From: a virus
Taxonomy: Duplodnaviria; Heunggongvirae; Uroviricota; Caudoviricetes
IMG/VR virus record: IMGVR_UViG_2534681978_000010
DNA: 8,200 bases
Reading direction: 5' to 3' (one strand)
Part shown: positions 715-8,199 of the stretch, piece by piece
How positions within the stretch are numbered: position 1 is the stretch's first letter
Layout: every line of letters starts with the position of its first letter
Notes under the pieces: generated by a model
The model's input: only the letters and a program-made list of their open reading frames with translations
Database searches by the model: none
What the model was told of the DNA's origin: nothing
Made by a program: the position numbers and the translations under genes

Positions 715-745
715 GCCCCGCACTTCCGTACGGGGCCATTTCTGT
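715..745 (+). terminator. GC-rich hairpin followed by U-rich tract; candidate intrinsic terminator for plus-strand transcription
   Basis: Seen directly: GCCCCG (715-720) pairs with CGGGGC (731-736); two more pairs (722-723 with 728-729) form across one C/A mismatch around a TTCC loop. It is followed by CATTTCTGTTAATCC. On the minus strand the hairpin is followed by an A-rich rather than U-rich tract, so it is not a classic terminator for the giant gene; it may stabilise that gene's 3' end. Confidence 0.35.
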
Positions 746-6700: not shown

Positions 6701-8199
6701 CGAACCATTTCACCCTCGAGTGTTTCCCCCTGGCGACCAGCGGCGTTTTCCGGTGCCGGAGCTTGTCCTTTCTGGAAACTCTGGCCCTTAACCTCACCGG
6801 TTGTGGTAAAACGACCACCACGTCCGGCCTGATTTTCATCCGGCGTACGCGCCACTTCTCCCGGTAACGGATATCCCTGTCCGGGATGAATATCGCCGGG
6901 AGCGGGCAGGCGCGGACGCTCAGTTAACTCCTGTGCTGTCGGACCGGCATCACCTTCAGCCATCTGTGAACGTACAAGCTCCTCCGCCGTCGGCGCGTTG
7001 CCACGGGCAAGGCGGGCCTGTACCTCCGTATCATCCCCCGTGAAACCACGGAATCGCGGGTCACGCATGAACGCGGGCTGCTCCATCGGGTCAGCATCAG
7101 CAATACGCTCTCTGTCAGCCAGGGTGTTAATGGTTTCCGTTGCCACATCTTCAGAGAACGCAGGATTATCCATTTCAACGGCATACTGATTCTCGCCTTT
7201 CTTCACTACGGACGGTTTCAGGCCGGTGGCGCCGGCATTACGGAAAACATCACTCCCCATGGCGCTTTTCTCATCCGTGAAATAACGGTTGTCCGGGCGC
7301 ACCTTCTCAATGCGTTCCGCTGGTCTGGACGCACCATTCCCGTTAATTTCAATGCGGACTTCATTCGGGTCCCGGAACCGCACCGTCGGGTAAATGCTCC
7401 CGTTACCATCCTCCGCATTTTCAGGCTGTGACTGTGCTTCCGGCGTCACTTCCTGTTGTGGGCGAATGACTTCTCGTATTGCCTGAAACTGTTGTTCTTC
7501 AGTCTCGGTGCGCCCCTCTTTCTGGCTGAGTCTGCGGTATTCCTCAAGCAGTTCAGAACGCGGCTTCGCCTTCAGCTCATTCATCACAGCCTGTCGCTTC
7601 GTCTGTTCGTCCAGTTCATTCAACAACTGGCTGGCAGCTTCCCGGCGATGAGCTGCGGATGCGTCACCCTCTGTTGCCATATCCGCATCAGCATACTGCT
7701 CCAGAAGCTGCTCGCGATTCATGCCCTGCATGGATTCACGCTGCTGCGCCACCGGATCAACAGATTCTGGTTGCGGGGCTGCGTCGTCCTGCTGCACGGT
7801 TTCAGCATCACGCATGGCGGTTTCTTCTGCGGCCTGACGTCTGCCACGATATCCGGCAACCGCACCGAATGGAGCCCCCATCGCAGCACCAAGGGCAGCA
7901 CCTTCGATCGTTGCGTCAGCCACGCCCTCCCATGGCGATACATCCATTCCGGCGGTCTCACGCAATGCCGTGTTTTCCTGATAGCGTGAATAGCCGCCCT
8001 GCGCCGCATTAATCGCCCCCTGTGCAGTGGCATTTCTGACAATGCCGCTTTTAACGGTCTTCGCTGTGCCTCGTGTCACCAGATTAAACAGTTGTGCGTC
8101 ACCCAGTTTTGCCGCCATGGCATTCACAGCCAGCAATTCAGGATCGGTTGCCAGCTGCGCGCGCACCTCATCGGCAACACGCTCTTTTGCCAGATCCAT
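745..8199 (-). CDS. Giant multi-domain protein (at least 2484 aa), cysteine-free, with two zincin-like HExxH motifs; candidate translocated polyvalent protein of a phage or conjugative element. 5' end at the window edge, possibly incomplete
   Basis: A 7.45-kb stop-free frame is overwhelming evidence of coding. Stop TAA is at 745-747 on the minus strand (C-terminus ...KKVGVD). The first ATG sits at 8199-8197, one nucleotide from the window end, so an upstream extension cannot be excluded. Functional call is inferred from composition and motif architecture, not from a database search. Confidence 0.92.
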   Translation of the reverse strand: MDLAKERVADEVRAQLATDPELLAVNAMAAKLGDAQLFNLVTRGTAKTVKSGIVRNATAQGAINAAQGGYSRYQENTALRETAGMDVSPWEGVADATIEGAALGAAMGAPFGAVAGYRGRRQAAEETAMRDAETVQQDDAAPQPESVDPVAQQRESMQGMNREQLLEQYADADMATEGDASAAHRREAASQLLNELDEQTKRQAVMNELKAKPRSELLEEYRRLSQKEGRTETEEQQFQAIREVIRPQQEVTPEAQSQPENAEDGNGSIYPTVRFRDPNEVRIEINGNGASRPAERIEKVRPDNRYFTDEKSAMGSDVFRNAGATGLKPSVVKKGENQYAVEMDNPAFSEDVATETINTLADRERIADADPMEQPAFMRDPRFRGFTGDDTEVQARLARGNAPTAEELVRSQMAEGDAGPTAQELTERPRLPAPGDIHPGQGYPLPGEVARTPDENQAGRGGRFTTTGEVKGQSFQKGQAPAPENAAGRQGETLEGEMVRRGLPSPDAQNATAPVREGLPAPDITHNVRMPQPDQLPRTVRNSLPELAQQAEVRRQAGGNRDIPQPETIAPESETTVSTDREATVRGGEVRGKKIEDFGEEIKGAAKHRYAQLAETLGKTLEDRDYATQPLSKLFPKPDYAKLASEGADADTLAMIALYRSDIPAKTKHNTAGWGESVKKVRHSVSEMLNGTVSAKRLAEWMEGRMPSRYADTWQLLRTLPPSQMDKASAYRVVSGVYQAAGGKRYDPPQKLYSLRNKDNKGTNLFFSESRDELLTKAKVWFAELEEKSQAKGDEKTAPSPDDKIRFDVYRNTRSGDIFIAYGKNKMRVRGGFKSASDARKYIDSHRDELVRHVKEMREISREEQRNATNRDRTGPERRKGDVSPEQFSDAFGFRGVQFGNYVEGPRRQADLNRAYDSLHDLAEVLNVPTKALSLNGRLGLAFGARGKGKAAAHYEPGEVAINLTKGNGPGALAHEWFHSLDNYFGRYDVSNDGKITSGGDFMTEAQRVRRIFKDGRYVDAEYPVRQEVYDAFKGVIQAIKNSDMPRRSVLLDEVRSKPYWSTDVEMAARAFERYVQDKARMAGVENDYLVNIRKAPEHNTDNTWAYPTNAELDGGIREAFDHLFRTLKTRETDKGVAFYSRKGVTRTPEGNLISDVNRSAEAKGSPVPQVEAVARGVMSGIKDSDLKVRVVKSQKEAEALAGELFDGYGRVHAFYRPDKREIVLVADNIPDGRTVREKLRHEIIHHAMEHVVTPAEYQTIIKTVLKTRDSDNVTIREAWRKVDASYGKESPEVQAGEFLAHMAEKQPNKFVAAWERVVALVKGVLRRTGLLKPTELNDIRLVRETIRTLGQRVREGYTPREDGAGASSQYSRSGKRDPFKVPEGEGERYRDDLARMMKSLRSTDLTVNIGRTPPVLRHLGAPDLPLVISRDTVRKATNGVKHVVPMDVIERLPELMHDPDAIYRSATERNAVVMLLDAVDKNGDPVVSAVHMKAVRSRLEINKVASVYGTENGKKLKSMEMTGLTLYRREKLSRDNLLHRGLQLPKGEHSYRGSVDKILYPEDIRKGPYYSRTSSLTPEETIASRFVRQMQDKFQVLKAVQENIRKTGGKVDDSNNAYMAEELFHGKAENDLNVMKERYVQPLAKLLADYKIAQADLDEYLYARHAPERNVHIAKINPKMPDGGSGMTNAEAAEIMQRVRNSGKQAQYDRLAGIIDDMLARRRELIREAGLEENGVVDAWQNAYRYYVPLKGQDVDGVVSLPRTGKGFTIGGRESRQAMGRASRAQSPSTQAIQDLSESLIRHRKNEVGNAFLKLVQDNPDKDYWQVFTDDRPDTMRVIAERKDQETGETIREVVERPVPMAMMADRYFTTKKDGKTYYIKLHDPRLMRAMKSMGPETSNAFVRTLGKVNRFLATVNTSYNPEFLVSNFIRDVQTAVMNLKAEQGRSDGKLKGLDNLSALAVVKDSRSAMSAVYASLRGKTLTGKGAQWQKVWKEFVEDGGKTGWFNMGDLEGQQKEMDRLVSLAKGGWKGQSIGAWHSFLNLVEDANGAVENALRLSAYKHARDAGLSRQQAASLAKNMTVNFNRRGEQGALMNSLYMFANASIQGTANLVRTLGHLNGDGPLLERLRWKNLNVPQKIVLAAVGAGYLLGSLNRSVAGEDDDGVNWYDKVPSHVKERNLVIMKSVFGGKAGEYWSIPLPYGYNVFFLLGHTAEGVAAGDLTASRAAGNVVGGVLGAFSPIGSETSETLSGALLKNAAPTILRPFANLSMNENFMGAQIYQENMPFGTPKPDSQLGRRSTPEAYKAFAFWLNAFSGGSQYRSGAVDITPESLKFWVDYISGGTGRFISKTTDAAVKSLNGIDIPEQQVPFLGKISGEVMPYVDQQKMYDRMTEVAQYHAELKSLTGAERTAFIDENNGKLLMNGLMQDTRKRLKDLRKQRDAIYADSSLSLAQQSAMVKSVERDMKVAVDRFNREYNKKVGVD
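1465..1797 (-). other. C-terminal hydrophobic/glycine-zipper segments (residues about 2135-2245: IVLAAVGAGYLLGSL; FFLLGHTAEGVAAG; AAGNVVGGVLGAFSPIG)
   Basis: Seen in the translation: two to three apolar stretches with G/A-x-x-x-G/A spacing, the only strongly hydrophobic segments in the C-terminal third. Confidence 0.5.
4420..4617 (-). other. Predicted zincin-like module 2 (residues about 1195-1260; HExxH = HEIIH at nt 4462-4476), with DUF4157-like local pattern
   Basis: Seen: GRVHAFYRPDKREIVLVADNIPDGRTVREKLRHEIIHHAMEHV. The pattern A-F-[TY] ... I-V-[FL] ... G-R ... L-x-H-E-[LI]-x-H-[VH] resembles what I recall of DUF4157-type zincin domains found at the N-termini of polymorphic toxins and eCIS effectors. 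Extra His/Glu after the motif (HHAMEH) could supply the third metal ligand. Confidence 0.45.
4810..5562 (-). other. Predicted zincin-like metallopeptidase module 1 (residues about 880-1130; HExxH = HEWFH at nt 5263-5277)
   Basis: Seen: ...AAHYEPGEVAINLTKGNGPGALAHEWFHSLDNYFGRYD. A beta-strand-like segment immediately followed by an HExxH helix is the layout of minimal zincins and of the MPTase domains described in polyvalent proteins. Domain limits are approximate. Confidence 0.5.
6280..7842 (-). other. About 520-residue acidic, E/Q/A/P/T/R-rich low-complexity region (residues 120-640), predicted intrinsically disordered; includes a Pro-rich repeated motif
   Basis: Seen in the translation: long runs such as EETAMRDAETVQQDDAAPQPESVDPVAQQRE, TETEEQQFQAIREVIRPQQEVTPEAQSQPENAEDG and RRGLPSPD...REGLPAPD, with very few hydrophobic or aromatic residues. 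Confidence 0.6.
7849..7914 (-). other. N-terminal Gly/Ala-rich hydrophobic segment (glycine-zipper-like; residues 96-117, ATIEGAALGAAMGAPFGAVAGY)
   Basis: Seen in the translation: small-residue G/A-x-x-x-G/A periodicity in a 22-residue apolar stretch, typical of membrane-inserting or oligomerising helices. Confidence 0.5.

Follow-up and report, generated by a model that had tools for sequence, protein, structure and literature searches.

A giant protein of short-tailed Shiga-toxin-converting phages as a likely head-internal ejection protein

A single open reading frame (ORF) occupies 91% of an 8,200-nucleotide stretch of tailed-phage DNA (IMG/VR record IMGVR_UViG_2534681978_000010; the whole stretch is called the window below), and the question that it raises is what a protein of this size does for the phage that encodes it. 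We found that the frame is the gene known as ORF80 in phage Sp5, and we consider it likely that its product is a head-internal, essential polyvalent ejection (pilot) protein of a short-tailed Shiga toxin (Stx) prophage of the Sepvirinae. Short-tailed Stx phages spread stx genes among E. coli and Shigella, and this gene makes up about 14% of the Stx-phage genome and is essential for infectivity. Neither the gene nor its polyvalent or ejection reading is new: RefSeq already labels it 'LPD5/LPD38 domain-containing protein', its deletion and complementation were published in 2016, and an ejection-protein proposal appeared in 2026. Two published annotations are corrected by the domain map given here, in which an AAA+ ATPase is absent and MuF_C is RNase-like; the re-analysis further adds a constant C-terminal chassis with swappable cargo, and finds a cysteine-free block of five genes that points to candidate partners of the ejection machinery.

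Identity and extent of the giant gene

Upon comparison by megablast, the window was found to belong to the short-tailed Shiga-toxin-converting phages (Sepvirinae: 933W-type, VT2-Sakai/Sp5, Shigella 75/02 Stx and POCJ13), with 268 matching phage records, 186 of which cover at least 80% of the window, and a DNA identity of 96-98%. Among complete E. coli genomes, 422 of 5426 carry the locus at a window coverage of at least 80%, nearly always in the chromosome, and the few matches labelled as plasmids are phage-sized records. A reading made earlier from the letters of the window alone (the sequence-only reading) had placed the gene in a prophage or phage-plasmid accessory setting; the prophage part of this stands, the phage-plasmid part does not, and 'accessory' is wrong, since the gene is essential in Sp5 (PMC5155283). 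Comparing the window protein with VT2-Sakai orf71 in bins of 100 amino acids (aa), we observed 95-100% identity in each bin, and VT2-Sakai orf71 is the same gene as ECs1242 and as ORF80 of the systematic Sp5 deletion study. On sequence comparison the window gene is the orthologue of Sp5 ORF80/ECs1242/VT2-Sakai orf71, of phi24B gp47 and of 75/02 Stx gp68. The versions in Sp5, 933W, phi24B and 75/02 Stx (phrog_616) are the same gene, colinear with the window protein over 2484 residues at 97-100% identity, with the same Pfam domains and, in each case, at the end of the late operon; the differences are allelic only, and the window is without the first 309 codons. In the annotated genomes (NC_029120 and AP000363) the giant coding sequence (CDS) comes after the tail fibres and lom as the final gene of the late (virion) operon, and converges on the ea/DUF551 region.

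The frame occupies positions 8199 to 745 of the minus strand without a break, with 2484 sense codons followed by a TAA stop at 745-747, and the ORF listing and translation bear out the single frame of about 7.45 kb that the sequence-only reading had described. The chance of 2484 stop-free codons is about (61/64)^2484, or ~1e-52, and the frame is real, far beyond chance. Upstream of its first codon there is one base only (the window ends at 8200), so that the frame is open to the right window edge, and the ATG at 8197-8199 encodes an internal methionine and is not the start of the protein. The earlier suspicion that the N-terminus is cut by the window edge proved correct: the window protein matches the phrog_616 profile of PHROG with 5675 bits over profile positions 310-2793 of 2793, and in BLASTP against the Shigella phage 75/02 Stx orthologue window aa 1-2484 correspond to aa 310-2793 at 96.9% identity. 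As both alignments start at position 310, the N-terminal 309 aa are missing from the window and the full protein has 2793 aa.

Upstream of the start, and outside the window, we observed in Shigella phage 75/02 Stx an intrinsic terminator (12891-12960, minus strand; CCCGGC-CATTGT-GCCGGG followed by T7) between the equivalent of ORF79 and the giant gene. A GGAG lies 3' of this terminator, and the ATG of the giant gene (MAYSEEQ) follows 5 nt further on. The annotated start in VT2-Sakai is 13 codons longer (MPGHCAGFFYGVC...); it crosses the terminator hairpin and brings in the only two cysteines, and for these reasons it is probably a mis-annotation. With the short start accepted, a terminator ahead of the giant gene implies that its expression would need Q-type antitermination.

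Domain architecture and exchangeable cargo

Four Pfam domains score far above their cutoffs in the giant protein (LPD5, LPD1, MuF_C and LPD38) and stand beside two zincins, so that several unrelated domains, including LPD domains and a metallopeptidase (MPTase), are joined in one protein encoded among late (virion) genes, as in polyvalent proteins. With the polyvalent proteins of Iyer, Burroughs, Anand, de Souza & Aravind 2017 (PMC5512222) it shares the LPD domains, including the phage-only LPD38, an MPTase with a strand-2 His and an Asp after HExxH, the MuF_C/PBECR domain and the late-gene neighbourhood. It differs from them in being essential for infectivity, whereas polyvalent proteins are framed mainly as conflict effectors, and in lacking the ATPase, methylase and ART cargo that is common among them.

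Proceeding from the N-terminus (Table 1; aa numbers are those of the window translation, to which 309 is added for full-length numbering), the window begins within a conserved block, of which full-length aa 161-408 are shared with the giant protein of Vibrio phage D79 at 29% identity in BLASTP. The low-complexity region that follows has a net charge of about -29, no Pfam match when searched in tiles and no conservation with the Vibrio or GP4 homologues in BLASTP, and it looks like a linker. Of the long disordered acidic linker of the sequence-only reading, the acidic low-complexity character holds by composition, and composition also suggests the disorder. Beyond a conserved helical region lies LPD5, a domain termed 'potentially enzymatic' by Iyer et al. 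(PMC5512222).

Both zincin motifs named by the sequence-only reading, HEWFH at aa 975 and HEIIH at aa 1242, were recovered. The region of zincin 1 and LPD1 matches NCBIfam CLCA_X at 150 bits, which is below the family cutoff. In an alignment of 30 homologues spanning 29-86% identity, H954, H975, E976, H979, D982, E1066 and E1073 of zincin 1 are invariant (30/30), and they fit the signature that Iyer et al. (PMC5512222) give for the common phage-type polyvalent metallopeptidase, a His at strand 2 and an Asp three residues after HExxH. For zincin 2, a block conserved with the Vibrio phage protein, H1242, E1243 and H1246 are present in 17-18 of about 21 sequences with a residue there and E1298 in 18 of 22, and the region has a weak Peptidase_M76 match. 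Each of the two motifs thus combines HExxH with a conserved downstream Glu, as in gluzincin-type metallopeptidases, and both zincins appear catalytically intact, with protease activity predicted. The MuF_C domain, which combines a PF18819 match with a BECR/RelE-like fold, is RNase-like and not a metallopeptidase, and RNase activity is predicted for it. The phi24B preprint (bioRxiv 10.64898/2026.04.10.717836) names MuF_C as the metallopeptidase; judged by Pfam and Iyer et al., the domain is mislabelled there, and the zincin motifs sit elsewhere in the protein.

An AlphaFold2 (AF2) model of aa 609-1540 shows separate, confidently folded domains (mean predicted local distance difference test, pLDDT, 77.5; predicted template modelling score, pTM, 0.45), and Foldseek of this central model against the PDB returned no match with an E below 0.9. 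Sequence searches of the PDB with the protein and two profiles gave low-complexity or coiled-coil noise only. The sequence-only reading had reported no ATPase, helicase, methyltransferase or polymerase motifs, and indeed no such family is among the Pfam or NCBIfam matches and no Walker A motif was found in a scan of the 2484 aa. No T7-like single-subunit RNA polymerase (RNAP) domain was found in Pfam, NCBIfam or PHROGs. Additionally, PADLOC assigned no defence-system family to the giant protein or its neighbours, and a tandem-repeat scan gave nothing notable beyond one 25-bp array.

The C-terminal module of about 900 aa, in which LPD38 comes after the helix of greatest hydrophobicity in the protein (aa 2140-2158), is found far beyond the Stx phages. 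Vibrio phages carry it at 41% identity, Ralstonia GP4 and Burkholderia Bcep22 at 26-28%, and it is present in Burkholderia JC1 and Bacteroides podophages as well; Bacillus and Pelagibacter podophages match in part, over 24-35% of the query. When 1.84 billion representatives were searched exhaustively with a profile of this module, 18,436 cluster representatives were returned at E <=1e-3 and 7,435 at E <=1e-30. Every full-length giant (about 1,800-5,181 aa) among the best 150 matches carries the module at its very C-terminal end. Upon examining 14 module-bearing giants with Pfam, we found LPD38 in all of them and a varied cargo, with ART-PolyVal in six, ddrB-ParB, RadC, PBECR5 and ResIII in three each, InPase and Eco57I methylase in two each, and furthermore SNF2, Sno-type helicase, HATPase and SLT. 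In the GP4 homologue the N-terminal domain is an SLT transglycosylase, a kind of domain found in known ejection proteins. As judged from these comparisons, the C-terminal module is constant and the cargo ahead of it exchangeable.

Among E. coli alleles, the cargo at aa 600-1540 (window 3580-6402) falls into one class at 94-100% identity and one common class at ~85% (for example P0123, with 465 member sequences). E. coli matches to the C-terminal module (window 748-3594) are mostly at 96-98%, with a few at 91-93%. This pattern suggests that the cargo may diversify or recombine faster than the chassis. Separately, a word-indexed search of 5.8 billion proteins gave matches of <=1653 aa only, mostly 'partial' fragments; the exhaustive search gave full-length giants of up to 5181 aa. 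Giants seem to be under-represented or fragmented in the 5.8-billion collection, which could bias counts of domain architectures.

Table 1. Features of the window, with the giant gene and its parts first and the flanking features last.
Feature	Position	Strand	Remarks
Giant ORF	745..8199	-	2484 codons and TAA; C-terminal 89% of the 2793-aa protein
Tail of conserved N-terminal block, aa 1-116	7852..8199	-	Ends in Gly-zipper-like IEGAALGAAMGAPFGAVAG
Low-complexity acidic region, aa ~117-608	6376..7851	-	Rich in P, E, Q, G, A; from composition, Pfam tiles and BLASTP blocks
Conserved helical region before LPD5, aa 609-741	5977..6375	-	AF2 pLDDT about 85-93 over tile residues 10-140
LPD5 (PF18799), aa 742-891	5527..5976	-	Pfam E 7e-45
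Zincin 1, phage-type polyvalent metallopeptidase, with LPD1 (PF18796), aa 873-1131	4807..5583	-	HEWFH (aa 975) at nt 5263-5277
Zincin 2, aa ~1164-1355	4135..4710	-	HEIIHHAMEH (aa 1242) at nt 4462-4476; downstream Glu E1298
MuF_C (PF18819), PBECR RNase-like, aa 1441-1530	3610..3879	-	Pfam E 1e-17
C-terminal module, aa ~1575-2484, mostly helical	748..3477	-	Profile searches; AF2 pLDDT 78.6, pTM 0.73
LPD38 (PF18857), aa 2167-2372, inside the C-terminal module	1084..1701	-	Pfam E 5e-46
Hairpin, 10-bp G+C-rich, GGAA loop	714..737	-	Starts 8 nt after the giant stop codon
dATP/dGTP-pyrophosphohydrolase (DUF550)-DUF551 fusion gene, 3' part	2..343	+	Cut by the left window edge
63-aa ORF	430..621	-	Positions 1-62 of the 91-aa family phrog_3658

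Role in the virion and alternative explanations

In the study of Mondal et al. 2016 (PMC5155283), an Sp5 prophage with an in-frame deletion of ORF80 (2793 aa) still excises and packages DNase-resistant DNA at the wild-type level, yet it gives no plaques and no lysogens, and the defect is complemented when induced producer cells express ORF80 from one cloned gene. The mutants were produced and assayed in one K-12 MG1655 background, and restriction escape therefore cannot explain why ORF80 is essential. In phi24B, gp47 is abundant in purified virions by mass spectrometry (MS) and unseen in the cryo-electron microscopy (cryo-EM) and negative-stain reconstructions of capsid, portal and tail, and the authors propose that it is an encapsidated ejection protein (bioRxiv 10.64898/2026.04.10.717836). 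Additionally, JC1 gp69, a homologue of 4515 aa, ranks second by MS score in the JC1 virion table (88.92), behind the major capsid protein (298.44). Together with the late-operon position and the domains LPD5, LPD1, MuF_C and LPD38, the phi24B virion data support the earlier proposal of a polyvalent protein or internal ejection protein. Tape-measure proteins, RHS/CdiA toxins and lymphostatin, homologies that the sequence-only reading had named as refuting it, were not matched in Pfam, NCBIfam or PHROG.

As an ejection protein, the giant would be made late, from the final gene of a morphogenesis operon under Q antitermination, and would be packaged inside the T=9 head, as the MS detection of the phi24B orthologue suggests. 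At infection it would pass out by way of the portal and tail, at least partly unfolded, either before the DNA or together with it. The conserved N-terminal block and the ~900-aa LPD38 module may form the constant 'chassis', serving encapsidation and the building or extension of a trans-envelope conduit, probably together with the small cysteine-free proteins encoded just upstream. The central cargo (LPD5, the two zincins and PBECR/MuF_C) could process the protein itself or, during the first minutes after infection, act on targets in the host, with MuF_C and LPD5 as putative effectors. Loss of the protein leaves DNA-filled, non-infective particles, as was shown with the Sp5 ORF80 deletion.

Among the giants of other podophages, Bcep22 gp75, JC1 gp69 and GP4 AXG67763 share with the Stx giant the homologous LPD38 module, the gene position after a gene for a ~500-aa virion protein, the association with the virion by MS and the lack of cysteine, and their phages are T=9 podophages with related portal and tail. 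The GP4 and JC1 proteins are larger (3224 and 4515 aa, respectively). The cargo of these giants is entirely different, with SLT and LPD3 in GP4 as against LPD5, two zincins and MuF_C in the Stx giant, in which a peptidoglycan hydrolase cannot be recognised. The virion RNA polymerase of N4 and DEV (gp50 and gp71, respectively; ejection operon gp72-gp73) is likewise a giant of >3000 aa, cysteine-free, detected by MS and invisible in cryo-EM (PMC11445570), encoded beside smaller cysteine-free partners, most conserved in its C-terminal region and in possession of a zincin (PMC11445570; PMC5512222). The Stx giant differs from it in having no RNAP domain, no detectable sequence or fold homology and a different gene order. 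By analogy, it may work like the class of the N4 virion RNA polymerase and T7 gp16, to which it is not homologous.

Several points weigh against an ejection protein. The head-internal location is derived from the MS detection combined with the absence from symmetric reconstructions, entry of the giant protein or its close homologues into the cell is putative, and the protease and RNase activities are predictions from motifs and domains. There is no sequence or fold homology to the characterised ejection proteins of T7, P22 and DEV, and Pfam finds no peptidoglycan hydrolase domain in the Stx orthologue, although the GP4 homologue does carry SLT. In 19-residue Kyte-Doolittle windows the hydrophobicity reaches 1.35 at aa 2140-2158 and 1.19 at the Gly-zipper-like aa 98-116, with a maximum of 1.35-1.38, and no segment attains the usual transmembrane threshold; the terminal membrane-active segments of the sequence-only reading are thus weak at best, being moderately hydrophobic, Gly-rich helices. 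Classical P22 ejection-protein mutants, moreover, retain their tails. The heads of the ORF80 deletion look normal and are filled with DNA but are unlabelled by antibody against the tail fibre (ORF67), which the authors read as a tail-assembly defect (PMC5155283).

The missing label is also what speaks for the original reading of Sp5 ORF80, that of a tail-assembly factor or structural tail protein, possibly an ATPase that uses energy, for which a COG1483 'AAA+ ATPase' match was reported (PMC5155283). We reject the AAA+ ATPase annotation, finding neither a Walker A motif nor an ATPase family of Pfam or NCBIfam. The phi24B tail and portal, furthermore, were fully modelled without density for gp47 even though gp47 is abundant by MS, and the homologues carry effector-type cargo (ART, RNases, methylases) that would be unexpected in an assembly factor. 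The loss of label could itself be secondary, for example if tail attachment is unstable without the internal protein. Taken together, we regard a role in tail assembly as unlikely.

Somewhat less likely still is that the protein is solely a DarB-like anti-restriction or anti-defence effector that protects the incoming DNA, as the GenBank labels on the GP4, Bcep22 and JC1 homologues imply. The family phrog_10089 ('DarB-like antirestriction') does match aa 2045-2372, and relatives do carry methylase, helicase and ART cargo. P1 DarB and DdrB are also large head-internal proteins that are delivered with the DNA, and DdrB has a C-terminal zincin. However, BLASTP finds no significant similarity to P1 DarB (best E 0.94) and only the zincin motif in DdrB (E 0.33), so that the label on the relatives reflects annotation and not similarity to P1 DarB. 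No methylase or helicase was found in the Stx orthologue with Pfam, and phage can do without DarB on non-restricting hosts but not without ORF80, even when production and assay are isogenic in K-12. An identification of the giant as DarB is rejected on these grounds (no P1 DarB homology, no N6-methyltransferase or helicase, no Walker A), and the argument of the sequence-only reading against DarB-like and N4 virion RNA polymerase-like giants is borne out by BLASTP and the family searches. An anti-defence role of the central cargo beside a structural role is possible. Finally, an artefact, in the form of several genes fused in one frame or a decaying cryptic-prophage pseudogene, for which the unusual length and the many small ORFs annotated across the region in the old record AP005153 could be cited, is so improbable that it can be set aside, given that the same unbroken CDS is present in 186 phage records and 422 complete genomes, was complemented as one cloned gene, yields peptides in virions and is conserved over its whole length down to 41% identity in Vibrio phages.

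Returning to the preferred ejection protein, we examined its cysteine content and gene neighbourhood. The window protein has no cysteine in 2484 aa and the full-length protein none in 2793 aa (P about 6e-13 at 1% Cys), and across the giants of three lineages (Stx, Vibrio and GP4) there is none in 2793, 3066 and 3224 aa (P about 2e-40 at 1% Cys). The N4/DEV ejection proteins gp71-73 are known to avoid cysteine, which has been ascribed to passage through the periplasm (PMC11445570), and the Stx giant shows the strong depletion that marks this class of podophage ejection proteins. In Shigella phage 75/02 Stx (4510-15603), the four genes before the giant (218, 148, 83 and 421 aa) are also cysteine-free, whereas the surrounding genes mostly have 0.8-8% Cys, with two tail-fibre genes cysteine-free as well. 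In Stx phages, GP4, Vibrio D79 and JC1 alike, the virion operon ends with the giant gene, and the gene ahead of it encodes a protein of 420-510 aa. This protein is associated with the virion in JC1, and in Sp5, as ORF79, it is essential. Ahead of the GP4 and Vibrio giants, too, the genes are cysteine-free. The 83-aa member of the 75/02 Stx block is annotated as 'bacteriocin' and has weak Gly-zipper-like matches.

We put forward tentatively, as a proposal that could well hold but may equally fail, that the cysteine-free gp64, gp65, gp66 and gp67 (the equivalent of Sp5 ORF79) form an ejection cassette with the giant, like but not homologous to T7 gp14-16 or N4 gp50-52. The LPD38 module would then be a universal delivery chassis that docks to the upstream partner and bears exchangeable effector cargo, and the Stx cargo would be a payload for host takeover or against host defence. 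If this is true, that cargo is injected into cells by the very phages that spread Shiga toxin.

Flanking features of the window

Downstream of the giant gene, the hairpin has a perfect stem and folds at -20.5 kcal/mol (z -3.9, 0 of 200 shuffles). It has no clear U-tract and was not called by the consensus terminator scan, and the consensus promoter and terminator scan of window 1-1000 gave nothing relevant. The hairpin probably marks the 3' end of the late transcript or stabilises it.

At the left edge of the window, the DUF551 neighbour that the sequence-only reading had pointed out is indeed present, as part of a fusion gene that comprises the last 30 residues of the DUF550 domain followed by DUF551; its frame is open to the window edge, and the ATG at 23 is therefore not its start. 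The Panacea-like neighbour, on the other hand, found no support: the 63-aa ORF has no Pfam match even at E up to 5 and no PADLOC match, and it matches only phrog_3658, a family to which no function is assigned. An out-of-frame ORF of 42 aa (345-473, minus strand) corresponds to positions 52-91 of the same family, and it is inside this gene, at about 534-540, that the window ceases to resemble 933W/Sakai-type phages. The split of the match over two frames and the break in similarity inside the gene indicate that it is truncated by a mosaic junction or a frameshift. The DNA downstream of the giant gene (window 1-540) is of the Shigella 75/02 and POCJ13 type and not of the 933W/Sakai type.

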